From Escherichia coli 042 (GTDB lineage Bacteria; Pseudomonadota; Gammaproteobacteria; Enterobacterales; Enterobacteriaceae), in NCBI RefSeq assembly GCF_000027125.1, contig NC_017626.1: 64,000 nt of DNA. The stretch is one strand, 5' to 3'. A program made the translations under genes and the position numbers. Positions 1,300-60,562 of the stretch are shown here, piece by piece (position 1 is the first letter of the stretch; each line of letters starts with the position of its first letter). The notes beneath the pieces were generated by a model. That model made no database searches. It was not told where the DNA came from and was given only the letters and a program-made list of their open reading frames with translations.

Positions 1300-1575
1300 T
1301 TACCGACTGCGGCCTGAGTTTTTTAAGTGACGTAAAATCGTGTTGAGGCCAACGCCCATAATGCGGGCAGTTGCCCGGCAGCCAACGCCATTCATGGCCA
1401 TATCAATGATTTTCTGGTGCGTACCGGGTTGAGAAGCGGTGTAAGTGAACTGCAGTTGCCATGTTTTACGGCAGTGAGAGCAGAGATAGCGCTGATGTCC
1501 GGCGGTGCTTTTGCCGTTACGCACCACTCCGTCAGTAGCTGAACAGGAGGGACAGCTGATAGAAACAGAAGCCAC
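1300..1575 (-). CDS. insA: IS1 InsA transposition regulator
   Basis: 91-aa [45 protein letters not shown]... is the canonical IS1 InsA. Confidence 0.93.
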
Positions 1576-2401
1576 TGGAGCACCTCAAAAACACCATCAT
1601 ACACTAAATCAGTAAGTTGGCAGCATCACCTGTTTTTCAATGGTGATTTCAGGTCCACGCTGGATGACGTTGACGTTTTTTGCGCTGATAAGTTTTCTGG
1701 CATTGAAAGAATATTGTACGCTTATATCTGTACATTTTCCGCGTTGGTTATATTGGGGTATTCCTCTTAACTATTTGCTTATCGGTTTTAATTGCTTTGA
1801 GCTGTTTCTGTTATTTATACCTTTGGCTGGGTTTCTGATATTAGCCACTTGGCGAGTTTTTGTGGGTGACCCCTCCGGTTTTCTGCATACCGTGAGCGCC
1901 ATTTTTTGGGGCTGGATAATGACCGTTTTCGCCTTGAGTCATGCCGCCTGGTTGTTAATGTTGCCAACCATAAATATCCAGGGCGAGGCGTTACTGGTGT
2001 TATTTCTTTTGGCATTAACCGAGTCAAACGATATTGCACAGTATTTATGGGGAAAATCCTGCGGCAGAAGAAAAGTGGTCCCTAAAGTCAGCCCGGGAAA
2101 AACATTGGAAGGTCTGATGGGCGGCGTAATCACCACCATTATTGCGTCACTGATTATTGGACCGTTGCTGACACCGCTAGATACATTACAGGCATTATTA
2201 GCGGGTTTGTTAATTGGTATTAGTGGTTTTTGCGGCGATGTAGTGATGTCAGCCATCAAACGAAATATTGGTGTTAAAGATAGTGGAAAACTATTACCAG
2301 GACATGGCGGACTCCTTGACAGGATTGACTCATTAATTTTCACCGCTCCGGTATTTTTTTATTTTATTCGCTACTGCTGTTACTGAAGGAAAACAGAGAA
2401 A

Positions 2402-5465
<3,064 letters not shown>

Positions 5466-31729: not shown

Positions 31730-32484
<755 letters not shown>

Positions 32485-32588
32485 ATCAGCATACTTGTCC
32501 TTAGCCTTCTGCAGTGACAGCTGGTAGTACAGCGTGCTTCTGGCCAGCCCTGCAGCCTTTAACAGGTCAGACTGGCAGTGTCCGCACC

Positions 32589-33119
32589 TCAGGCTCCGGA
32601 TGACTTTCGTTTTTTCTCCAGCTCCTGGCGCTTTTTTTCCAGGAGATGCTCCTGCATGGCTTTCAGATATGCATTTTCTGCGCGAAGATAACGCAGCTCA
32701 TTCTTCATCTCTTCCGGCGTCATGTTTGCCTCGTTTTCATGGGTATCATCAGAACGGGTCATGCTTTTCTCCTTCCTGCGCCTGATAAAGGCCTCATTAC
32801 CAGATTTGCGGTAGCCTTTTATCCAGTTTTTAACCGTGTTGTGGCTGGGAATGTTAAACCGGGCAGCTACCCGGGGTAGAGACTCAGAATGCCCGAGAGC
32901 ATAAAGAACCACGCAAAGTTTATCTTCAGGAGAATAGCTACGCTTGTGTCTGCAATCCAGTGCCCGAGGACCGTGAAGAAGAAAAAGATTAATCCAGTGT
33001 GAGAGGCTGGTGTGAGAAAGTTGAAAGAGTTTTGCCGTAGAAATGATGCCTGCATGACCAGCCAGGTAATGATTTACAGCGGCAAGTTTTACTTCAAATG
33101 AATGTTTCATAAACTGCAC
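32589..33119 (-). CDS. IS3-family transposase OrfA (HTH)
   Basis: 176-aa ORF with HTH and leucine-zipper-like C-terminus, ending in an A-rich slippery run (gagaaaaaacga). Confidence 0.88.
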   Translation of the reverse strand: MQFMKHSFEVKLAAVNHYLAGHAGIISTAKLFQLSHTSLSHWINLFLLHGPRALDCRHKRSYSPEDKLCVVLYALGHSESLPRVAARFNIPSHNTVKNWIKGYRKSGNEAFIRRRKEKSMTRSDDTHENEANMTPEEMKNELRYLRAENAYLKAMQEHLLEKKRQELEKKRKSSGA

Positions 33120-33186
33120 CTTCAGATGTCAGATTATGTCCAACATTTGGGGTGCAGTTCATACGCCGCATCCGGCAATAAATGAC

Positions 33187-51936: not shown

Positions 51937-52554
51937 ATGATTAAGGTGTATGGCGTACCCGGATGGGGCTCTACAATCAGTGAGCTGATGCTAACACTGG
52001 CTGATATTCCTTATCAGTTCGTTGATGTCAGTGGTTTTGACCACGAGGGAACCTCACGCGAGTTATTGAAAACCCTGAACCCGTTGTGTCAGATTCCGAC
52101 ACTGGCGCTGGAAAATGACGAGATTATGACGGAGACAGCGGCGATTGCATTGATGGTTCTCGATCGTCGCCCGGACCTTGCGCCACCGGTTGGGCGCGCC
52201 GAACGTCAGCAGTTTCAACGGCTATTGGTCTGGCTGGTTGCTAATGTCTATCCAACATTCACTTTCGCCGATTACCCTGAGCGTTGGGCTCCTGACGCAC
52301 CCGAACAGTTAAAGAATAATGTTATTGAATATCGTAAATCGCTTTATATCTGGCTGAATTCACAATTGACCGCTGAACCTTATGCCTTTGGCGAGCAACT
52401 AACGCTGGTGGACTGTTATCTCTGCACCATGCGCACATGGGGGCCGGGGCATGAATGGTTTCACGATAATGCGCAGAATATCAGCGCGATCGCTGAAGCT
52501 GTATGTCAGTTACCGAAATTACAAGAAGTATTAAAAAGGAATGTCATTATTTAA
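51937..52554 (+). CDS. yncG: Glutathione S-transferase homologue YncG
   Basis: 205-aa GST-fold ORF. Confidence 0.9.
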   Translation: MIKVYGVPGWGSTISELMLTLADIPYQFVDVSGFDHEGTSRELLKTLNPLCQIPTLALENDEIMTETAAIALMVLDRRPDLAPPVGRAERQQFQRLLVWLVANVYPTFTFADYPERWAPDAPEQLKNNVIEYRKSLYIWLNSQLTAEPYAFGEQLTLVDCYLCTMRTWGPGHEWFHDNAQNISAIAEAVCQLPKLQEVLKRNVII

Positions 52555-53093
52555 CAATAATGCCGGAGGTTAATGTTAATGAATCACTGGCGTAATTAAC
52601 TGGATATCCATTTGTTTGCTATGAATAGTAATTAAAGTTGGTACAACTATTTATATGATTGATGTAATTTCGTTTTTTATATGAAATATCAATTTAATAT
52701 AATCCGAAAATAAAACATCTTTTCGCATGTAGAGAAACATGTCGATATGATAGTGCAGTGCAGATCATGTCATCAGGGTAGGGCGGTAGCGTATTTAATC
52801 AGGGAAAGATTACGCAACGCTGCTTTTTTGTATTGAACGATTCGCATTTTATGTTTAAAAATTGCGATATTCCTTATTTCCTGAAGCTGTTTTTATTGCT
52901 TATACATGATCAAATACTCCTTACATAATTAAGGAGAACAAAATGGAACTTAATACACGCCAACAATTTGTATTACTTAAATAGACCAGTGAAGGTACGC
53001 ATCAGAACATCCGGTGAAGTGATTAATATTTCGTTGAATATTTCTCCCGATTTTTGAAACCTGCTGCTGTAGAAATTCTGAACAGGAGGAATT

Positions 53094-53378
53094 ATGCCTT
53101 TAGCAGCCAAACTCACCGACAAAGGCACCCAGCACGACGGTTATTACGAGACCGTCATCACCGCCGGGTCATCCACCGTCTTTATCGATGGTCTTCCCGC
53201 AGCCCGTCAGGGAGATCCGCTGACGCCGCATGCTAAACCGAAGCATCCCCCTCATCCCCGTAAAATCGCCAGAGGTTCTTCAACCGTCTTTATTGACGGC
53301 CTGCCCGCCGCCAGAAGCGGTGATGCTGTTGACTGCGGCGGCGTGGTTATTGGTGGCGGTACGGTAAATATAGGCTGA
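53094..53378 (+). CDS. PAAR-repeat protein (T6SS spike tip)
   Basis: 94-aa ORF with two LPAAR motifs (VFIDGLPAARQGD, VFIDGLPAARSGD); SD aggagg; 18 bp upstream of vgrG. Confidence 0.8.
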   Translation: MPLAAKLTDKGTQHDGYYETVITAGSSTVFIDGLPAARQGDPLTPHAKPKHPPHPRKIARGSSTVFIDGLPAARSGDAVDCGGVVIGGGTVNIG

Positions 53379-53396
53379 TATGTCTGAGAGGTATTT

Positions 53397-55802
53397 ATGT
53401 CCTTAAAAGGTCTTCGCTTTACGCTGGAGGTTGACGGCCAGGAGCCGGACACCTTTGCAGTGGTGAATTTCAGGTTAATCCAGAACCAGTCATATCCGTT
53501 TGTGATGAGTGTGGATGTTGCCAGCGACTCTTTTATGCAGACGGCGGAGATGCTGCTGGAGAAGAAGGCGACACTGACCATCTGGCAGGGCGCAGTGGCG
53601 CAGCGTTATGTCACCGGCGTGGTGGCGGGTTTTGGCATGCAGGAGAATAACGGCTGGCAGATGCGTTATCACCTGCGTATTGAGCCGCCGTTATGGCGGT
53701 GCGGGCTGCGGCAGAACTTTCGTATCTTCCAGCAGCAGGATATCCGGACGATATCGGCCACGTTACTGAACGAGAACGGCGTCACGGAGTGGACGCCGCT
53801 GTTTTATGAGGACCATCCGGCGCGGGAGTTCTGTGTCCAGTACGGGGAGTCGGACCTGGCGTTTCTGTCCCGGCTGTGGGCGGAGGAGGGTCTTTTCTTC
53901 TTTGAGCGGTTTGCGGCGGACAGTCCGGAGCAGAAGCTGACGCTGTGCGACGATGTGGCGGGGCTGTCACAGGCGGGGGAGTTTCCGTTTAACCCGGACA
54001 CATCGGCAGGTGCGGAGACGGAGTGTGTCAGTATGTTCCGTTATGAGGCGCATGTCCGCCCGTCATCGGTGCAGAGCCAGGATTACACCTTTAAGGTGCC
54101 GGACTGGCCGGGGATGTATGAGCAGCAGGGTGAGAACCTGAACGGACAGCTGGAGCAGTATGAGATATTTGATTATCCGGGAAGGTACAAGGATGAACAG
54201 CACGGCAAGGATTTCACGCTGTACCAGATGGAGAGCCTGCGCAGTGATGCGGAAAAGGCCACAGGGCAGAGTAATTCGCCGAAGCTGTGGCCGGGAACGC
54301 GGTTTATGCTGACGGGGCATCCGCAGAAGATGCTGAACCGTGAATGGCAGGTGGTACAGAGCATACTGTCAGGAAACCAGCCGCAGGCGCTGCACGGCAG
54401 CCAGGGAAAGGGAACCACGCTGGGCAATCAGTTAGAGGTGATACCGGCGGACCGGACGTGGCGTCCACGGCTGCAAAACAAACCGAAGGTGGACGGGCCA
54501 CAGAGCGCCATCGTCACCGGTCCTGCGGGAGAGGAAATCTTCTGCGATGAACATGGACGGGTACGGGTGAAGTTCCACTGGGACCGTTATCACGGGATGA
54601 CGGAGGCGAGTTCATGCTGGGTGCGGGTATCGCAGGCGTGGGCGGGGCCGGGGTTCGGTAACCTGGCGATACCACGGGTGGGTCAGGAGGTGATAGTGGA
54701 CTTCCTGAACGGCGACCCGGACCAGCCGATAATCATGGGGCGGACGTACCATGAGGACAACCGTTCGCCGGGCGACCTGCCGGGAACGAAGACGCAGATG
54801 ACCATCCGGTCAAAAACCTATAAAGGAAGCGGATTTAACGAGCTGCGGTTTGAAGACGCCACCAGTAATGAGCAGGTGTATATCCATGCCCAGAAGAACA
54901 TGGATACGGAGGTGCTCAACGACCGGACAACGGATGTGAAACATGACCATACGGAAACCATCGGGAACGACCAGAAGATAACGGTGGTGAAGGGGCAGAC
55001 GGTTCAGGTCGGGACCAGAAAAGAAGGGGGCCACGACCAGAGTATCACGGTGGCGAACGACCGGTGCATCACGGTACGTAATGACCAGACGCTGCAGGTG
55101 ACGAATGACCGGACGGTGAGCGTGAGTAATGATGACGGCCTGTACGTCAGAAATGACCGTAAAGTGACGGTGGAAGGGAAGCAGGAGCATAAGACGACGG
55201 GGAACCATATCAGTCTGGTGGAGGGAAAGCACAGCCTGGTGGTGAAGGGGGACCTGGCGAGGAAGGTGAGTGGCGCGCTGGGGATAAAGGTGGACGGGGA
55301 TATCGTGCTGGAGAGCAGCAGCCGGATAAGCCTGAAGGTGAGTGGCTCGTTTGTGGTCATCCATTCAGGGGGCGTGGACATCGTCGGGCCGAAAATCAAT
55401 CTCAATAGCGGCGGTAGTCCGGGGACGCCGGTGCCGGCGCTGCAACCGGCGGTGCTGAAGACACTGGGGGATGAGAAGAGTGGTGATGGCAGTGATTCCG
55501 GAGAAGAAAATGAAGACTCTGGAGGGAACTGCGTGACCGGAAGTGGTGGTGATGATCGAGGTGACGATGAGGATGAACCTGAAAAATATACTCTCCAGTT
55601 CCATTTTACAGACGATGACGGGATACCGTATTCAGAAACCCGCTACATTGCCTTCTTTGAGGATGGCACGCAGACCCGCGGAGAAACGGATGAAGAGGGG
55701 TATACAGAGCGTTTTTTTGTATCTAGCAAACATGAAATTAAAGTGAAGTTGTTATTTGCGAATGATGATTTTCTCTCAATGGAAGGACACTATGGACGAT
55801 AA
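53397..55802 (+). CDS. vgrG: Type VI secretion spike protein VgrG with C-terminal extension
   Basis: 801-aa ORF with gp27/gp5-like N-terminal two thirds, beta-helix repeat region (TVSVSNDDGLYVRNDRKVTV...), then an acidic Gly/Ser/Asp linker and a ~70-aa C-terminal domain. Confidence 0.9.
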   Translation: MSLKGLRFTLEVDGQEPDTFAVVNFRLIQNQSYPFVMSVDVASDSFMQTAEMLLEKKATLTIWQGAVAQRYVTGVVAGFGMQENNGWQMRYHLRIEPPLWRCGLRQNFRIFQQQDIRTISATLLNENGVTEWTPLFYEDHPAREFCVQYGESDLAFLSRLWAEEGLFFFERFAADSPEQKLTLCDDVAGLSQAGEFPFNPDTSAGAETECVSMFRYEAHVRPSSVQSQDYTFKVPDWPGMYEQQGENLNGQLEQYEIFDYPGRYKDEQHGKDFTLYQMESLRSDAEKATGQSNSPKLWPGTRFMLTGHPQKMLNREWQVVQSILSGNQPQALHGSQGKGTTLGNQLEVIPADRTWRPRLQNKPKVDGPQSAIVTGPAGEEIFCDEHGRVRVKFHWDRYHGMTEASSCWVRVSQAWAGPGFGNLAIPRVGQEVIVDFLNGDPDQPIIMGRTYHEDNRSPGDLPGTKTQMTIRSKTYKGSGFNELRFEDATSNEQVYIHAQKNMDTEVLNDRTTDVKHDHTETIGNDQKITVVKGQTVQVGTRKEGGHDQSITVANDRCITVRNDQTLQVTNDRTVSVSNDDGLYVRNDRKVTVEGKQEHKTTGNHISLVEGKHSLVVKGDLARKVSGALGIKVDGDIVLESSSRISLKVSGSFVVIHSGGVDIVGPKINLNSGGSPGTPVPALQPAVLKTLGDEKSGDGSDSGEENEDSGGNCVTGSGGDDRGDDEDEPEKYTLQFHFTDDDGIPYSETRYIAFFEDGTQTRGETDEEGYTERFFVSSKHEIKVKLLFANDDFLSMEGHYGR

Positions 55803-56583
55803 TAATCAAACTTCTGGACAACCAAAGCCAGAGCCAGAAGAATGTGTGAAAGAGCAAAAAATAACTGATCATTTTAAAATAATGATTGATAAGGCTCGTA
55901 AGGCACAAAAGTTGGTTTTGATAAAAAGAGCAGATGATCTTTTGAGATGGGGAGCACAGGAGGAATATGATTTCAGTAAGATCTTTGGTGTTAAAGGAAA
56001 TAAGGAGGTTAATATAAGAAAATATGGACATAATACAGGTAGGCGCATGAATGCTAGATTTCTTATGATGGATGGTGTGAGAAGATTAATGATTATAGCT
56101 AATGATTTAACAATGAGCAGTTTTATAAATTATACAGGTTGTAATGAATTTGCAGCATTCGTCAGCCCAAGTAAGGATATGCCCTATATAATTAACATAG
56201 GCGCAAAATTTGAGTATAGAGATGGCAAAAAAAATCCAGTAACGGGAAAGGATTCTCATGTTGCTACTTTATGTCATGAAATGTCTCATATTCAGTGGTA
56301 TTATGGGGATAATAAAAAAGGTGGTATGTGGTCACAGGATTATACAACTACTGATAAATATTCAACGTGCAAAGAGGATGAAGTTTCATATGACGAACAT
56401 ATCCGTATTGCAACTAAACTGATCTCTAAACAAAAAGATCAAATATTCGAGAATGCATATAACATAGAAAGATATTTTGAAATAAGATTAATTGAAAGTG
56501 AGATAGACTCGATTAATGATGAAATATTAAGCAATTCAGTTAAGAAAAAAATAGCGGAATTAGAAAAAGCACTTCTCCATTAA
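55792..56583 (+). CDS. Putative T6SS cargo effector with HExxH zinc-metallopeptidase motif
   Basis: 263 codons from ATG 55792, which overlaps the last 11 bp of vgrG; motif TLCHEMSHIQWYYG (HEXXH); no signal peptide or TM segment. Confidence 0.6.
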   Translation: MDDNNQTSGQPKPEPEECVKEQKITDHFKIMIDKARKAQKLVLIKRADDLLRWGAQEEYDFSKIFGVKGNKEVNIRKYGHNTGRRMNARFLMMDGVRRLMIIANDLTMSSFINYTGCNEFAAFVSPSKDMPYIINIGAKFEYRDGKKNPVTGKDSHVATLCHEMSHIQWYYGDNKKGGMWSQDYTTTDKYSTCKEDEVSYDEHIRIATKLISKQKDQIFENAYNIERYFEIRLIESEIDSINDEILSNSVKKKIAELEKALLH

Positions 56584-56606
56584 CTAATAAGTCGAGAAAT
56601 ATATTA

Positions 56607-57428
56607 ATGCTGCAAGCTATAAAAAAAATCATAATAATGACAATCGTAAATATTATATTTTTCTATTCCTTTCAATCGACTGCGGATGAAATGGTTTTAA
56701 TAAAAAAATACGGGTTTGGGCTTGAGAGAGATATCAAAGGAAGGCCATTAATTTATCCTATCGAAAATTATGATGAGTGTAAGAAAAAATGCAATCATAT
56801 GAATTATATAGCGGATGTCAATGCTCAATTAGCTATGAGTAAAAAAAATAACAGGATTTTTGCTAACATAACCTTTACTAACAATAGCTCTACCACGTAT
56901 TTTTTTTCTAAATATTACCTACCTATGAAAGTAAAAGATGGAAAAGGAGATGAATATGATGCGATATGCAAAAAACCATTCAGAATCAACTCTGGGAATA
57001 TCACGTTGGACTACTTAGGTGGTTCATGTCCTTTTGAAATTAATACGAATCCTGAACGGTGGAATACTATTAAACCAGGTCGTAGTTTTTTGTTGAGTAT
57101 AACCTTAAATGATATGTATGCCTTTATACCAGGAGATAATTATTATTTTATAAAATCATCTGGCTATAAATTTGTTAATGACAAGTGGTTTACACTCAAA
57201 TCAATCAATAATATTTTTCTTTATTTTTTAAATTTAAAAATTAATTGTGCTGATGATTTTTTTGATATTAATAATTTTACTACATGTGATAATTTGTTAT
57301 TAGATGAAAAAAAACACTTTTTTATTAATCAGTTATGGGCAATTGAGGATGAAAAAAATTCTATTTACGTCACCCCTGATGAAATTTCTATAAGTATAGA
57401 CGGCGATAACTTAAAGTTGCCATATTAG
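56607..57428 (+). CDS. Putative cognate immunity protein (secreted/periplasmic)
   Basis: 273-aa ORF 23 bp after the effector; N-terminal signal peptide (IIIMTIVNIIFFYSFQSTA/DE); AT-rich; no recognisable domain. Confidence 0.5.
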   Translation: MLQAIKKIIIMTIVNIIFFYSFQSTADEMVLIKKYGFGLERDIKGRPLIYPIENYDECKKKCNHMNYIADVNAQLAMSKKNNRIFANITFTNNSSTTYFFSKYYLPMKVKDGKGDEYDAICKKPFRINSGNITLDYLGGSCPFEINTNPERWNTIKPGRSFLLSITLNDMYAFIPGDNYYFIKSSGYKFVNDKWFTLKSINNIFLYFLNLKINCADDFFDINNFTTCDNLLLDEKKHFFINQLWAIEDEKNSIYVTPDEISISIDGDNLKLPY

Positions 57429-57447: not shown

Positions 57448-57936
57448 GTGCGCCGCTTTTTTGTACTAAATAATTCGCATTTTAGTCACGGCAGAGAAGA
57501 AATCCATCTTCATATTGTTTGCGATGTCCCTGATGAACTTATTGATTTCACGTTTGAATGGAAAGGTCAGAAGAAATTATGCGTGGCAGTCTCCTTTTGG
57601 TCAATAATAGCAGAACAAAAGAAAGAGCCAGAAATGACGGTCAGATATTATATCAGTTCTGCTGATTTAACCGCAAAAAAGTTCGCCACAGCGATACGAA
57701 ATCACTGGCACGTGGAGAATAAGCTGCACTGGCGTCTGGACGTGGTAATGAACGAAGACGACTGCAAAATAAGAAGAGGAAACGCCGCAGAATTATTTTC
57801 AGGGATACGGCACATCGCTATTAATATTTTAACGAATGATAAGGTATTCAAGGCAGGGTTAAGACGCAAGATGCGAAAAGCAGCTATGGACAGAGACTAC
57901 CTCGCGTCAGTCCTTGCGGGGAGCGGGCTTTCGTAA
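57448..57936 (+). pseudogene. H-repeat-associated (ISAs1-family transposase) C-terminal remnant
   Basis: 162-aa ORF whose C-terminal ~110 aa ([63 protein letters not shown]...) matches the C-terminus of H-rpt / ISAs1 transposases; N-terminal catalytic part absent. Confidence 0.75.
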
Positions 57937-58044: not shown

Positions 58045-58605
58045 ATGAAAAAAAGCAAAAAAATTAAAACAATGAACCATCAAAATAATAGCGGGATACA
58101 AAATCAACCAGACTATCACATCGAAATAGAAAGAAAAAATATGGTAAGATTGCTTGATGAACGTATTGATAAAGTTTACGGTTCATTGCTAGGACCAATG
58201 AAAAAGAAAAATATAGATAAAATACGTCATTTTACACTTGATGTAATGGTGTTTATTCTTGACACGAACCCTCGTGTTTGTAATAAATTATCCAGGGAAA
58301 TAATATCTTTAGCGCAAAATACCTTCATTGAAAAAAACGTTAATTTTTCAACTTTTAATAATGAACAGCATAGAATAAGGGAGTATATGAATGAAGGTGG
58401 TGGAATACGATGGTTTACATGGGATAACCCCGAGATATCTTTTGTTCGTGCATCTTTTGGCCTTTTTGTCAAAATGGAAACAAAAGGTGATCATGAACAT
58501 ACACTAAGTGACACATTTCTTCAGATTGTTGAGTGTGTTAATTTAAATATAGGACTTATTGCAAAAGATGAACTGGTAAAAATCATCAATAAACACTTTA
58601 TGTAA
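58045..58605 (+). CDS. Hypothetical protein (AT-rich orphan)
   Basis: 186-aa ORF in a low-GC block downstream of the H-rpt remnant; no recognisable motif. Confidence 0.4.
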   Translation: MKKSKKIKTMNHQNNSGIQNQPDYHIEIERKNMVRLLDERIDKVYGSLLGPMKKKNIDKIRHFTLDVMVFILDTNPRVCNKLSREIISLAQNTFIEKNVNFSTFNNEQHRIREYMNEGGGIRWFTWDNPEISFVRASFGLFVKMETKGDHEHTLSDTFLQIVECVNLNIGLIAKDELVKIINKHFM

Positions 58606-58964: not shown

Positions 58965-59600
58965 ATGAATAAAGGTAATAGATTACAACAGTTAGAAGAT
59001 GCGTGTCGTGATATTATTAAAATTAACATGTGGTATGAACTCCCCGATTATGTATTTTTTTCAATATCTGACACCATCGATGGGACGAGTGATGAATTCG
59101 CAATAAATGTGTATAAAAATATCGATAAAAGTCTTCTTGAAATATTATTGCATCCATCTGTTTTACTGTCAGTTGTTGAGTCCTTACAAAGTAATACTAT
59201 AGCTGAGTATATCGTGAAATTGTCTGAAATAGAGATGAATTATGACGACTTGCTAATATCGGATGTTAAATCATGTCTTTTTATCAACTATGGATTCAAT
59301 AACAGTGAATCGGTTGCGCTATTTAATAAGATTTACCGCGAATTAAAAGATATTGTAAAATCATCAAGAGTACATATAGATCATGAGAAAGATATTTTTG
59401 ATGGCCTTAATCAAATCTTGGCTTTTTCCGATAATAATAAACATGAGTATTTTTTATATATAAAGGCATATTGGCTCAGTTTATACTTTTGTGAAATTTC
59501 ACAGAACGTGAGAGAAAGAGATAAGTTGTCATTTTATTATAATGAATTTTCTGTCCGATTTCCTAATGTTGTCCTATATCCGTCATGCTACAAATTGTAA
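58965..59600 (+). CDS. Hypothetical protein (AT-rich orphan)
   Basis: 211-aa ORF in a low-GC block; no signal peptide; no recognisable motif. Confidence 0.4.
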   Translation: MNKGNRLQQLEDACRDIIKINMWYELPDYVFFSISDTIDGTSDEFAINVYKNIDKSLLEILLHPSVLLSVVESLQSNTIAEYIVKLSEIEMNYDDLLISDVKSCLFINYGFNNSESVALFNKIYRELKDIVKSSRVHIDHEKDIFDGLNQILAFSDNNKHEYFLYIKAYWLSLYFCEISQNVRERDKLSFYYNEFSVRFPNVVLYPSCYKL

Positions 59601-59779
59601 GGCTTGGCACCTGAAATTCATTGTTAATTCGAGACGCTTGATTGTCCACTATATCAAAACAGTCATACCTCGGAATTTTCTCGCATTAGTCCATACGGTA
59701 TTCAATATTCGCAACTGTGCCCTGAAATAAAAAACTGCAAAACTGCTTTTTCTTGACCTGTCCCAATCACGCAAGACTA

Positions 59780-59926
59780 CTTTTAGTAGAGACCTCCAGC
59801 TATGTCGATTTTAGTGCCGCCCGCGCATTTTATACAAAACAGGGCTTTATTAATGAAGCTATAATACGCAATTACTATGATGTTGGTGAGGATAAATTAA
59901 TCTTCACTAAAAATATGCAATCGTGA
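59780..59926 (+). pseudogene. C-terminal remnant of a RimI-like GNAT acetyltransferase
   Basis: Hand translation ...LLLVETSSYVDFSAARAFYTKQGFINEAIIRNYYDVGEDKLIFTKNMQS* resembles the C-terminal motif of RimI-type GNATs; frame is closed by TGA about 55 codons upstream, so no full-length gene. Confidence 0.4.
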
Positions 59927-59992: not shown

Positions 59993-60562
59993 TTAGCCCG
60001 CGGTGACTCGCTTGCCGCTGGTAACAAACGTGCCAGCACCTAAGTGATGTAGTGTATTGAGTTTATCATCATCAAACTGCCAGCGGCCTTCGACAAATAC
60101 CCGTGCGTCTGCCGCTGCTGATACCACCTCGCCAAACAGCGTGTCGTATTTTTCTTGCGCGGAAGTCGCAGGTAGCAAGCGGCACTCCATCCACGCCAGA
60201 CATTTTTCCTCGACCAGAGGCAAACCAAGTACCGGACCTTTCACTACTGGAATGCCGTAGCAATTAAATTTATCTTCTTCACGACCCGACACACTTCCCA
60301 CCGCCCACGTCCAGTTAGTTGCTGCAACGCCCGGGATAACGATGCCAAATTTACCGTTACGTTCAATCAACTCCCTGGTCCATGTCGATTTATCTACCAC
60401 GATCGCAACACGTGGCGGTTCAAACTCTACCGGCATCGACCAGGCCGCAGCCATCACATTACGTCGCTGTGATTTTTCATCAAAAGTTGTTATCAAAATA
60501 GTTGGGCCATGATTTAACAGACGGCTGGCATGGTGTAATTCGACAGGGATGAATCGGCTCAC
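59993..60562 (-). CDS. yddH: Flavin reductase-like protein YddH
   Basis: 189-aa ORF at the conserved position before nhoA. Confidence 0.9.
   Translation of the reverse strand: MSRFIPVELHHASRLLNHGPTILITTFDEKSQRRNVMAAAWSMPVEFEPPRVAIVVDKSTWTRELIERNGKFGIVIPGVAATNWTWAVGSVSGREEDKFNCYGIPVVKGPVLGLPLVEEKCLAWMECRLLPATSAQEKYDTLFGEVVSAAADARVFVEGRWQFDDDKLNTLHHLGAGTFVTSGKRVTAG

Follow-up and report, generated by a model that had tools for sequence, protein, structure and literature searches.

Several systems close to the locus studied here have been described. In fact, the island itself and the toxicity of its effector are already published for BCE049, where the locus appears as 'effector locus 1, module 5' (PAAR / VgrG-O2 / M35-peptidase; Front Vet Sci 2021, PMC7904677). 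That paper reports that the M35 peptidase arrested E. coli growth only when it was sent to the periplasm by a PelB leader, and T6SS2 delivery of the module is predicted there from VgrG phylogeny; immunity, secretion, the TTR domain, fold and substrate are not addressed in the sections consulted. Annotations exist in RefSeq too, with the names PAAR, VgrG and "peptidase M35" for the island genes. Moreover, the toxin of Pseudomonas aeruginosa VgrG2b is neutralised by a periplasmic immunity protein (PA0261), whose cysteines matter (Wood et al. 2019, PMC6899460). The VgrG2b family is called "M35" in PMC10673891, and its E. coli PAR homologue is loaded via a separate DUF2345 protein.

We analyzed the corresponding island in a window of 64,000 nucleotides (the whole stretch of DNA under study) from Escherichia coli 042. 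The effector of the window and BCE049 FQU84_RS13640 are identical at 262 of 263 residues. The effector/immunity pair, which the original prediction had not recognised, is thus recognisable, as a RefSeq "peptidase M35" whose near-identical counterpart was published as toxic. Module 5 of BCE049 and the window share the yncG...yddH slot and the gene order, but upstream of it BCE049 carries a further module (PAAR-VgrG-DUF2169-PAAR-like) that the window lacks, and the BCE049 immunity gene is annotated in two parts while the window copy is full length. All features given below are on the + strand. The four co-directional ORFs were found exactly where they had been placed, with spacings of 18 bp, an 11-bp overlap and 23 bp. 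The module is bounded by yncG and yddH, the slot of the RhsE relic in K-12; the original prediction was right on this, the K-12 order being yncG-yncH-rhsE'-ydcD-yncI'-ydcC-pptA-yddH. The leader between yncG (ending at 52554) and the PAAR gene is indeed AT-rich (52555..53093; GC 0.31-0.38), but its length is 539 bp, not 530 bp. We read in it an AGGAGG ribosome-binding site 5 nt upstream of the PAAR-gene ATG, and promoter-like matches in the leader are at chance level (15 observed vs 12.4 expected). The downstream edge is an ISAs1 (H-repeat) transposase fragment (57448..57936; NF033564, 117 bits), which matches model positions 201-314 only and is labelled 'incomplete, missing N-terminus' in RefSeq. 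As had been claimed, T6SS core genes are absent from the window, which is collinear, bar IS elements, with an annotated T-HYM1 region containing none; the segments found in the window but not in T-HYM1 are an IS1 at 863-1630 and an IS3-family element at 31730-33161.

We consider it probable that these genes form an auxiliary T6SS spike-and-cargo module in the RhsE slot, consisting of PAAR, VgrG, a TTR-docked peptidase and a prodomain-like immunity protein. All parts of the original prediction of an auxiliary cargo island found support. Judged by their profile matches, the first two genes encode bona fide spike proteins. The PAAR tip protein (94 aa, 53094..53378) matches NF033420 over its full length with 156.5 bits (cut-off 124), and the two motifs expected in it are present as GLPAAR. 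The VgrG/TssI spike (801 aa, 53397..55802) matches TIGR03361 with 599 bits and contains the Pfam domains Phage_GPD, Phage_base_V and two copies of Gp5_trimer_C; its architecture is a gp27-like and gp5-like core, a beta-helix, an acidic linker and a C-terminal domain. The Pfam domain search found DUF2345 neither as a domain nor as a gene. Since vgrG and the HExxH gene overlap, there is no space for an adaptor gene between them, in agreement with the original prediction.

The third gene (55792..56583) encodes a protein of 263 aa without signal peptide or prodomain, and its translation and profile comparison support a metallopeptidase-fold effector of the aspzincin (M35) type. The HEXXH motif noticed earlier is HEMSH at 56275-56289. 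Together with D183, the proposed third zinc ligand, it makes up the putative catalytic set H162-E163-x-x-H166 plus D183 (56275..56340, HEMSHIQWYYGDNKKGGMWSQD), and none of these four residues varies among 19 homologues. D183 lines up with the second Asp of the AsaP1-type GTDD, and the canonical GTxDxxYG of aspzincins is cut down to this Asp alone. The invariant block NAYNIERYF (56452..56478) is the aligned counterpart of the NADNHEYF helix in AsaP1-type enzymes. Compared as a single sequence with Pfam Aspzincin_M35, the effector stays below significance (E 0.005). Effector homologues lie directly 3' of a vgrG in 17 of 17 modules; on Cronobacter plasmids the effector domain is fused to VgrG, the TTR domain is absent and an immunity-family member comes next.

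The fourth gene (56607..57428, 273 aa) encodes a putative periplasmic immunity protein, as its signal peptide, conserved linkage and prodomain homology suggest. Its product had been called secreted, and it carries a Sec signal peptide at aa 1-26 (56607-56684), with the N-terminus MLQAIKKIIIMTIVNIIFFYSFQSTA followed by DE. Its family is next after the effector in each of the 17 modules, and an orphan copy persists in Nissle 1917, both of which strengthen the earlier proposal of an immunity candidate. C121 and C141 are invariant in an 8-sequence alignment and nearly invariant in a 57-sequence alignment. The beta-sandwich (aa ~71-186, 56817-57164) is homologous to the aspzincin propeptide: comparison of the immunity family with the AsaP1-type propeptide gave an hhalign probability of 91.6% (E 8.3e-7, 102 columns), and the immunity HMM matches residues 28-134 of a Pseudoalteromonas M35 zymogen. 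These alignments suggest that the immunity protein derives from the inhibitory propeptide of the protease itself, an origin for which we found no earlier report in the literature. The beta-sandwich is only distantly related to the N-terminal propeptide holding AsaP1-type aspzincins inactive, and the protein would most likely cover the active-site cleft of the effector in prodomain fashion. The immunity family does not preserve the Lys-Arg that AsaP1-type propeptides share, so the details of inhibition may differ.

The TTR-like C-terminal domain of VgrG (aa 727-801, 55575..55799) is the proposed docking site of the effector. All 13 VgrGs that precede an effector homologue retain the motif YxxQFxFTDDDGIPYxxTxYIAxFxDGTxxxGxTDxxGxTE of this domain, and the domain profile matches residues 781-829 of EAEC VgrG1 (6SJL; E 1.1e-4). 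Two VgrG backbones with only 27% identity to each other carry the domain, which is itself 53% identical between them, and the VgrGs with other cargo in the examined loci do not have it. TTR domain, effector and immunity gene follow in fixed order and tightly packed in all 17 modules, which come from 16 loci of Escherichia, Salmonella, Citrobacter, Buttiauxella, Franconibacter and Rahnella (five of the 16 found independently of those used for profile building). TTR-domain identity does not track effector identity (Spearman 0.26, p 0.18), so the docking-site case stands on presence or absence of the domain only. We propose that this C-terminus accounts for the missing adaptor: the TTR-like domain (~60 residues) would bind the product of the next gene directly, and a separate adaptor would not be required.

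A T6SS elsewhere had been presumed to serve the module, and such a system is found in JNE12-007, which is identical to the window over 7.5 kb and has a complete tssA-M and hcp cluster at aspV. Over aa 1-500, the window VgrG shares ~95% of its residues with the VgrG encoded inside this T6SS cluster. Since its core appears to be of the same aspV-linked type ("T6SS2" of ExPEC papers), the spike should be mountable on the aspV machine. Among the genomes sampled that carry the complete effector-immunity pair, 41 of 44 also have the aspV tssC type. We infer from these observations that delivery depends on the T6SS. Nissle 1917 has an intact module of the same kind and no megablast match to the aspV tssC type, so the link between module and T6SS is not absolute. 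The PAAR protein would cap the VgrG trimer, and firing would put the zinc metallopeptidase, made without signal peptide or prodomain, into the periplasm of a Gram-negative neighbour, where it would cleave an envelope substrate and halt growth, while the Sec-exported product of the fourth gene would shield sister cells. In the literature on this effector we found no demonstration of secretion, of T6SS-dependent killing or of neutralisation by the fourth gene.

Other explanations were also considered. The peptidase might be mainly an anti-host effector acting on eukaryotes, with the downstream gene as a safeguard only. We think this unlikely, though AsaP1, the closest solved relative, is described as a toxic extracellular endopeptidase and fish toxin, and T6SS2 plays a part in ExPEC virulence. 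According to PMC7904677, BCE049 mutants in T6SS1 and in T6SS2 were attenuated in mice. The same paper reports that deletion of effector locus 1 did not attenuate BCE049 and that toxicity was observed in the E. coli periplasm. Moreover, a dedicated periplasmic immunity gene in all loci, found as an orphan in non-producers, is the signature of an interbacterial toxin, although the two roles are not mutually exclusive.

Slightly less credible again is a decaying relic like K-12 RhsE, whose intact-looking ORFs would be fired by no machine and have no function in the cell. The unchanged mouse virulence of BCE049 after deletion of the whole effector locus would fit it, but the periplasmic toxicity of the BCE049 protein would not (both from PMC7904677). 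The island does sit in the RhsE slot and end in a transposase fragment, the JNE12-007 aspV cluster has a truncated vgrG and a frameshifted VasL-domain gene, and the module of O145:H28 RM12761 is clearly pseudogenised, with vgrG truncated and the effector gene fragmented. However, RM12761, the one inspected of three carriers without the partner tssC, is where decay was seen, while tssC is kept in the great majority of sampled carriers. The four window ORFs are full length. Identity of the effector-immunity pair reaches 99% or more in 587 records, and query coverage is 80% or higher in 509 of 5426 genomes. A divergent allele has taken the place of the VgrG C-terminus, effector and immunity gene in Nissle 1917, where the older, window-type immunity gene is kept downstream, behind a 32%-identical replacement effector and that effector's own immunity gene. 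ABU 83972 likewise retains the window-type gene without matching effector. Such allele replacement and orphan retention indicate ongoing selection.

It is very improbable that the fourth gene, instead of an immunity protein, codes for a chaperone, an adaptor or a partner secreted along with the effector, such as a trans-acting foldase prodomain required for effector folding. The protein does resemble a prodomain, protease prodomains are often folding catalysts, and no other adaptor is encoded. But its Sec signal peptide and conserved cysteines place it in the periplasm while the effector, lacking a signal peptide, would be loaded in the cytoplasm, and its retention without effector in Nissle 1917 and ABU 83972 fits immunity, not a chaperone. 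Finally, membership of the effector in the VgrG2b C-terminal metallopeptidase / PA0261 family of P. aeruginosa is hardly credible and was rejected: the two have in common that they are HExxH T6SS toxins of the periplasm whose immunity proteins carry signal peptides, and the VgrG2b C-terminal crystal structure opens with a TTR-like stretch weakly matching the TTR profile (6H56 residues 24-59, E 0.08), but no sequence or fold relationship with the VgrG2b or PAR M35 catalytic domains was detected, 6H56 is absent from single-sequence and family-profile matches at E<=10, DUF2345 is lacking here, and the immunity protein of 273 aa differs in size and kind from the small ORF of VgrG2b (Wood et al., PMC6899460).

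Read as an auxiliary spike-and-cargo module with a prodomain-like immunity protein, the locus can be compared with four known systems. EAEC VgrG1-Tle1 (6SJL/6SK0) has, as here, a small TTR-like VgrG end and a cargo gene directly downstream without adaptor, and Flaugnatti et al. reportedly found in 2016 and 2020 that the TTR-bearing end of VgrG1 binds Tle1. Its cargo is a phospholipase, whereas the window has a metallopeptidase with candidate TTR docking, on a VgrG backbone of T6SS2 type without DUF2345. The P. aeruginosa VgrG2b metallopeptidase with PA0261 and the E. coli PAR M35 protein are T6SS-delivered HExxH periplasmic toxins, as proposed here, and a fused form exists for VgrG2b as for the window effector family in Cronobacter; however, they are loaded by covalent fusion or through DUF2345, unlike the window module. 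Orphan-immunity arrays are known from Rhs, CDI and Vibrio cholerae auxiliary T6SS loci. An old immunity gene is likewise retained in Nissle 1917, but as a single orphan only. The aspzincins of MEROPS M35 (GfMEP 1G12, AsaP1 2X3A, deuterolysin 1EB6) share with the effector the HExxH with an Asp third ligand, the TGxDS motif before HExxH and the NA-N-E-YF helix. Their GTxDxxYG is degenerate in the window effector, and the Asp of their NAD is an invariant Tyr in its family, so Lys specificity is not to be assumed. They are secreted signal-peptide zymogens carrying the prodomain in cis, whereas the enzyme here would be injected, and the homologue of the AsaP1 propeptide, its putative inhibitory partner, is the product of a separate gene and is separately exported.

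The island between yncG (51937–52554) and yddH (59993–60562, minus strand) carries four plus-strand genes at exactly the positions predicted from the sequence, namely a PAAR gene (53094–53378, 94 aa), vgrG (53397–55802, 801 aa), a predicted effector gene (55792–56583, 263 aa) and a predicted immunity gene (56607–57428, 273 aa). The spacings also agree with those predicted: an 18-bp gap, an 11-bp overlap between vgrG and the effector gene, and a 23-bp gap. RefSeq labels the four products as PAAR, TssI/VgrG, “peptidase M35” (WP_000342577.1) and hypothetical protein. The AT-rich leader that had been noted after yncG is present (GC 0.31–0.38), and its length is 539 bp rather than 530 bp. The GC content is 0.55–0.62 in the PAAR and vgrG genes and about 0.30 from the effector gene to 59750. 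A scan of the leader and the module for promoters and terminators gave results no better than those for shuffled sequence. A 13-codon ORF (MELNTRQQFVLLK; approximately 52944–52985, plus strand) with a strong TAAGGAG RBS lies in the leader upstream of the PAAR gene, and could be either a leader peptide or a chance occurrence.

The two spike proteins were assigned by profile. The PAAR protein matches NF033420 over its full length (residues 1–94) with 156.5 bits, above the curated cut-off of 124 bits, and has two GLPAAR motifs, as the original prediction had it. VgrG matches TIGR03361 (599 bits) and the Pfam families Phage_GPD, Phage_base_V and Gp5_trimer_C (twice), so that the gp27-like and gp5-like domains and the beta-helix that go with the VgrG call are present; no match to DUF2345 was found in it. 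Nor is any adaptor encoded between vgrG and the effector gene, in keeping with the prediction: these genes overlap, and the island proteins show no matches to DUF4123, DUF1795/Eag or DUF2169. The absence of T6SS core genes also holds for the whole window, which extends from ydbD through narW on the E. coli chromosome and which, IS elements aside, is collinear with an annotated T-HYM1 stretch that has none.

The island lies in the slot that the original prediction gave, correctly, as the place of the degenerate RhsE element in K-12. MG1655 has yncH, the rhsE pseudogene, ydcD, yncI', ydcC and pptA there; pptA is absent here. The Rhs YD-repeat core is likewise missing, as predicted, since vgrG is the only gene between yncG and yddH encoding more than 275 aa and the scanned proteins gave no Rhs matches. 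Directly after the fourth gene lies an ISAs1 (H-repeat) transposase fragment (57448–57936). Between this fragment and yddH are two plus-strand ORFs with a GC content of about 0.30 (58045–58605, 186 aa, and 58965–59600, 211 aa), which RefSeq designates as hypothetical and for which NCBIfam, Pfam and PADLOC scans returned nothing significant; they may be orphan immunity genes from earlier Rhs or VgrG cargo. A 57-aa ORF (59753–59926, plus strand) weakly matches RimI-type acetyltransferases at their C-terminal end (E 2.6e-4) and looks like a gene fragment. The only segments of the window that T-HYM1 lacks are an IS1 copy with InsA/InsB ORFs (863–1630), inserted in the ynbA–ynbB region, and an IS3-family element (31730–33161) adjoining rlhA; T-HYM1 instead has IS150 near trg. 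Identity to T-HYM1 is 97.5–98.3% over 1–31729 versus 99.8–99.95% over 33162–64000, a jump that points to recombination with a boundary at, or close to, the IS3-family element.

The HExxH motif predicted in the third protein is HEMSH (aa 162–166), which is invariant in 19 homologues. A search of 5.8 billion proteins yielded 29 relatives of the effector, mostly from Escherichia, Salmonella, Buttiauxella, Franconibacter and Rahnella, and in the family alignment H162, E163, H166, D183 and the block NAYNIERYF are invariant. As a single sequence, the effector gave a partial and non-significant match to Pfam PF14521 (Aspzincin_M35; E 0.005, 17.7 bits). The family profile searched against the PDB matched the M35 aspzincin AsaP1 (2X3A) with E 1.8e-6 and GfMEP (1G12) with E 1.3e-3, and the effector has the M35 catalytic-domain fold. 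A place in the family of the VgrG2b C-terminal metallopeptidase (the PAR “M35” family) was rejected, because no similarity in sequence or fold to PDB 6H56 was found. The fold is that of an aspzincin, not of the VgrG2b family.

Two motifs of the aspzincin site are altered. D183, the putative third zinc ligand, aligns with the Asp ligand of GTxDxxYG. AsaP1-type enzymes and the Cronobacter fusion protein treated below have GTDD at this place; the Asp alone is left in the window effector, G, T, Y and G being absent. Moreover, NAYNIERYF aligns with NADNHEYF of AsaP1-type enzymes, with an invariant Tyr in place of the Asp and the Glu retained. In aspzincins, acidic residues of the NADxxE helix make up the Lys-specific S1' pocket. 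Neither a signal peptide nor an N-terminal propeptide in cis, the features of a zymogen, is found in the effector; its N-terminus is hydrophilic, with disorder over the first 16 residues, and the catalytic fold sets in near aa 26. M35 peptidases of about 200 aa with signal-peptide-like N-termini and no propeptide are also encoded on a Ruegeria plasmid and a Polaromonas plasmid, each with a separate hypothetical gene upstream. The upstream Ruegeria protein was not matched by the HMM of the immunity family, and these two peptidases are possible further prodomain-less aspzincins.

How the peptidase would be loaded is suggested by the end of VgrG, a TTR-like domain at aa 727–801 (55575–55799). A profile built from 13 VgrG C-termini matches residues 781–829 of EAEC VgrG1 (6SJL) with E 1.1e-4, at the end of VgrG1 formed by the Tle1-binding TTR domain; the profile also matches, weakly, the start of the VgrG2b C-terminal structure. 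In every context examined, the effector homologues begin within or just past the last vgrG codons. Homologues 57–63% identical to the effector stand behind VgrGs of the T6SS2 type (the aspV-linked T6SS), some within a core cluster by tssB/C/E/F and hcp and others in orphan PAAR-vgrG islands. Those with about 30–35% identity stand behind T6SS1-type VgrGs with DUF2345, between clpV and tssM. The two VgrG types are 24–27% identical overall, yet have in common a C-terminal domain of about 60 residues at 46–62% identity. In all 17 modules, which come from 16 loci, the HMM matches stand in the order TTR domain, effector, downstream protein; five of the loci (two from Citrobacter and one each from Rahnella, Buttiauxella and Escherichia sp.) came from a separate scan. 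The scan of species-representative genomes relies on two peptide patterns and gave only five loci, which is an undercount and not the true range of the family.

The VgrGs of the same loci that carry DUF4123- or DUF2169-type cargo contain no TTR-like domain. Moreover, on Cronobacter sakazakii plasmids a 970-aa VgrG without a TTR domain carries the effector domain as a fusion at its end (effector profile E 5.6e-32), and the next gene encodes a member of the immunity family (E 3e-30). This pattern of presence and absence suggests that the TTR-like domain may serve as the docking site of the effector in place of an adaptor. The pairwise identities of TTR domains and effectors were not significantly correlated (rho 0.26, p 0.18). 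In plasmid pCrono589-1 of C. sakazakii (1355–4944), the fusion VgrG has the canonical GTDD motif and lies in a plasmid T6SS cluster, and the immunity-family gene has no signal peptide as annotated. Two back-to-back vgrG(TTR)-effector-immunity modules, whose effectors are 43% identical to each other, were observed inside a T6SS1 cluster of E. coli GCA_053725335.1 (3498–12156). The family, in which an aspzincin effector goes with a TTR domain of its own and an immunity protein, is clean, widespread and biochemically unstudied. It moves between two unrelated T6SS types and is well suited to asking how TTR domains choose their cargo.

The fourth protein begins with a typical Sec signal peptide, as predicted, and its gene adjoins the effector gene, its product is predicted to be exported and the pairing is conserved, as expected of a periplasmic immunity gene. 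In each of the 17 modules the gene after the effector is a homologue, and the Cronobacter fusion is likewise followed by one. NCBIfam, Pfam and PADLOC scans of the effector and the immunity protein found nothing significant, and a word-indexed homology search with the immunity protein returned only near-identical E. coli sequences. Its relatives came to light only once the genes behind effector homologues had been collected and an exhaustive profile search run. The genes 3' of eight effector homologues encode proteins 24–42% identical to the fourth protein, with C121 and C141 invariant and signal peptides in most, and at E≤1e-3 the profile search gave 152 cluster representatives, 64 of them reaching E≤1e-30. 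The immunity gene of the mastitis strain BCE049 (NZ_CP042250.1, 2401062–2401833) is annotated as two ORFs of 264 and 456 bp, with the effector intact, and in UTI89 the effector (253 aa) and the immunity protein (261 aa) fall a little short of those of the window. Real decay could account for this, as could a frameshift or a sequencing error.

Nissle 1917 has a different allele at the same locus (NZ_CP007799.1, 1649957–1655234). Its VgrG is 92% identical to that of the window, and the allele comprises the end of the TTR domain, an effector with 32% identity and an adjacent immunity gene with 33% identity over 90 residues. Just downstream, a window-type immunity gene has been kept, 98% identical over 240 residues, and the same immunity-only match was found in ABU 83972 and other strains. 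Displacement of the effector with retention of this gene is the pattern expected of an immunity gene. It is indirect evidence that the fourth gene would neutralise its cognate effector, an orphan copy having apparently been kept in Nissle 1917 after the effector was replaced. Nissle 1917 gave no megablast match to T6SS2-type tssC, though its module is intact. The probiotic Nissle 1917 and ABU 83972 have the immunity gene of this toxin without the toxin, which may bear on how they compete with ExPEC strains in the gut or bladder.

The immunity family resembles the part that the effector lacks. Profile-profile comparison by hhalign aligned immunity residues 71–186 with propeptide residues 3–102 over 102 columns (91.6% probability, E 8.3e-7), and the immunity HMM matches residues 28–134 of a Pseudoalteromonas M35 zymogen. 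The full-length zymogens were obtained by tblastn on the plasmid collection; an 83-aa AsaP1 fragment as query gave only short fragments. The family has the beta-sandwich fold of the AsaP1-type propeptide together with profile homology to it. Searched against PDB sequences, the immunity profile gave no AsaP1 match and only spurious hemocyanin matches, so the link to the prodomain rests on the comparison of folds and of profiles. From the hhalign result and the match to the zymogen, the immunity family is a remote homologue of the aspzincin propeptide.

In AsaP1, structural work reportedly showed that the propeptide inhibits the enzyme intramolecularly, and its Lys-Arg loop presumably plugs the S1' pocket. 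This loop (K62-R63, invariant in three propeptides) is not conserved in the immunity family, where LDYLGxxCxF stands at the aligned place and a Cys is nearly invariant. It may be, as a speculation, that plug and pocket changed together, the Lys-Arg being lost and the Asp of NAD becoming Tyr. The immunity protein seems to be the former prodomain of the protease itself, released from it. A fuller scenario, to which we give roughly equal chances of being right and wrong, is that of a split zymogen: an ancestral secreted M35 protease would have lost its prodomain, its catalytic domain would have become T6SS cargo, either docked on a TTR domain or fused to VgrG as in Cronobacter, and the prodomain would have become a separate, Sec-exported immunity protein that inhibits by the ancestral mechanism. 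If this is true, it documents an evolutionary route from autoinhibition to immunity. Immunity by a freed prodomain, as it appears here, would make the way of neutralisation open to experiment and would illustrate concretely where immunity genes can come from. The searchable literature yielded nothing relevant on aspzincins and T6SS or on propeptide-like immunity, and no report of a prodomain-like T6SS immunity protein or a split-zymogen pair was found in it; Ma et al. 2018 (BBA) reportedly list “peptidase” VT modules.

Many complete genomes contain the 7.5-kb island with 100% identity, and 174 of 5426 have 80% or more of it. For the effector-immunity pair, 509 of these 5426 genomes, UTI89 and APEC O18 included, match 80% or more of the query, and the frequency of the island comes to about 9% of complete E. 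coli genomes, with the same two strains as examples. Co-carriage of a T6SS was assessed with a chimeric query that joined the pair to tssC of a T6SS2-type cluster, by the matching places in each genome. Of 44 genomes with the full pair, sampled at even intervals along the ranking, 41 also contain a T6SS2-type tssC. The three without it are O145:H28-like strains, and RM12761 (O145:H28), the one inspected of the three, shows truncation of vgrG and an effector gene split into several fragments.

A T6SS of the kind presumed to lie elsewhere was found in JNE12-007, a strain identical to the window over the 7.5 kb, whose core cluster at aspV comprises tssB, C, E, F, G, J, K, L, H, A and M along with tagH, vasI and a pair of hcp genes. 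The first 500 residues of the window VgrG are about 95% identical to the VgrG of this cluster, and the protein shares 90% identity with another in-cluster VgrG, one whose effector is 57% identical. A T6SS that would be compatible with the module is thus present in a strain with the window-identical island, and the module has decayed in RM12761, the inspected strain that lacks such a system. The finding is real, and the reading of the island as an auxiliary T6SS cargo module is supported. In the annotation of JNE12-007, the cluster's own vgrG is truncated, with the C-terminus missing, and the VasL-domain gene carries a frameshift. Should the truncation be real, spikes from genes elsewhere, e.g. 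the island VgrG, may be of greater weight for the machine.

The effector/immunity pair had not been recognised in the original prediction, and here it fell short, as the effector was already described, though barely characterised, under its RefSeq name and as a protein of BCE049. According to PMC7904677, BCE049 is a bovine mastitis strain whose “effector locus 1” (FQU84_13600–13645) holds modules 4 and 5, with VgrG-O1 and VgrG-O2 of this locus grouping with the T6SS2 VgrG. In the same study, the “M35-peptidase” of module 5 stopped E. coli from growing only if it carried a PelB leader, and deletion of the whole locus left mouse virulence unchanged; the sections consulted report no immunity, secretion or substrate experiment. 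On the BCE049 chromosome, locus 1 occupies the same yncG-yddH slot and module 5 consists of the same four genes, with 262 of 263 peptidase residues identical, but BCE049 has an extra PAAR-VgrG-DUF2169-PAAR-like module upstream. This identity, together with the published toxicity, makes the unrecognised pair that of a described effector. The novelty of the locus is low: it is a known kind of system, it is annotated, and the toxicity of a near-identical protein has been tested in a published study. The locus as such is ordinary, cargo-bearing VgrG islands being common in E. coli. What this analysis adds to the known systems is the aspzincin fold assignment, the TTR domain common to two T6SS types with its fused variant, natural-history evidence for T6SS dependence and immunity, and the apparent origin of the immunity protein from a prodomain.
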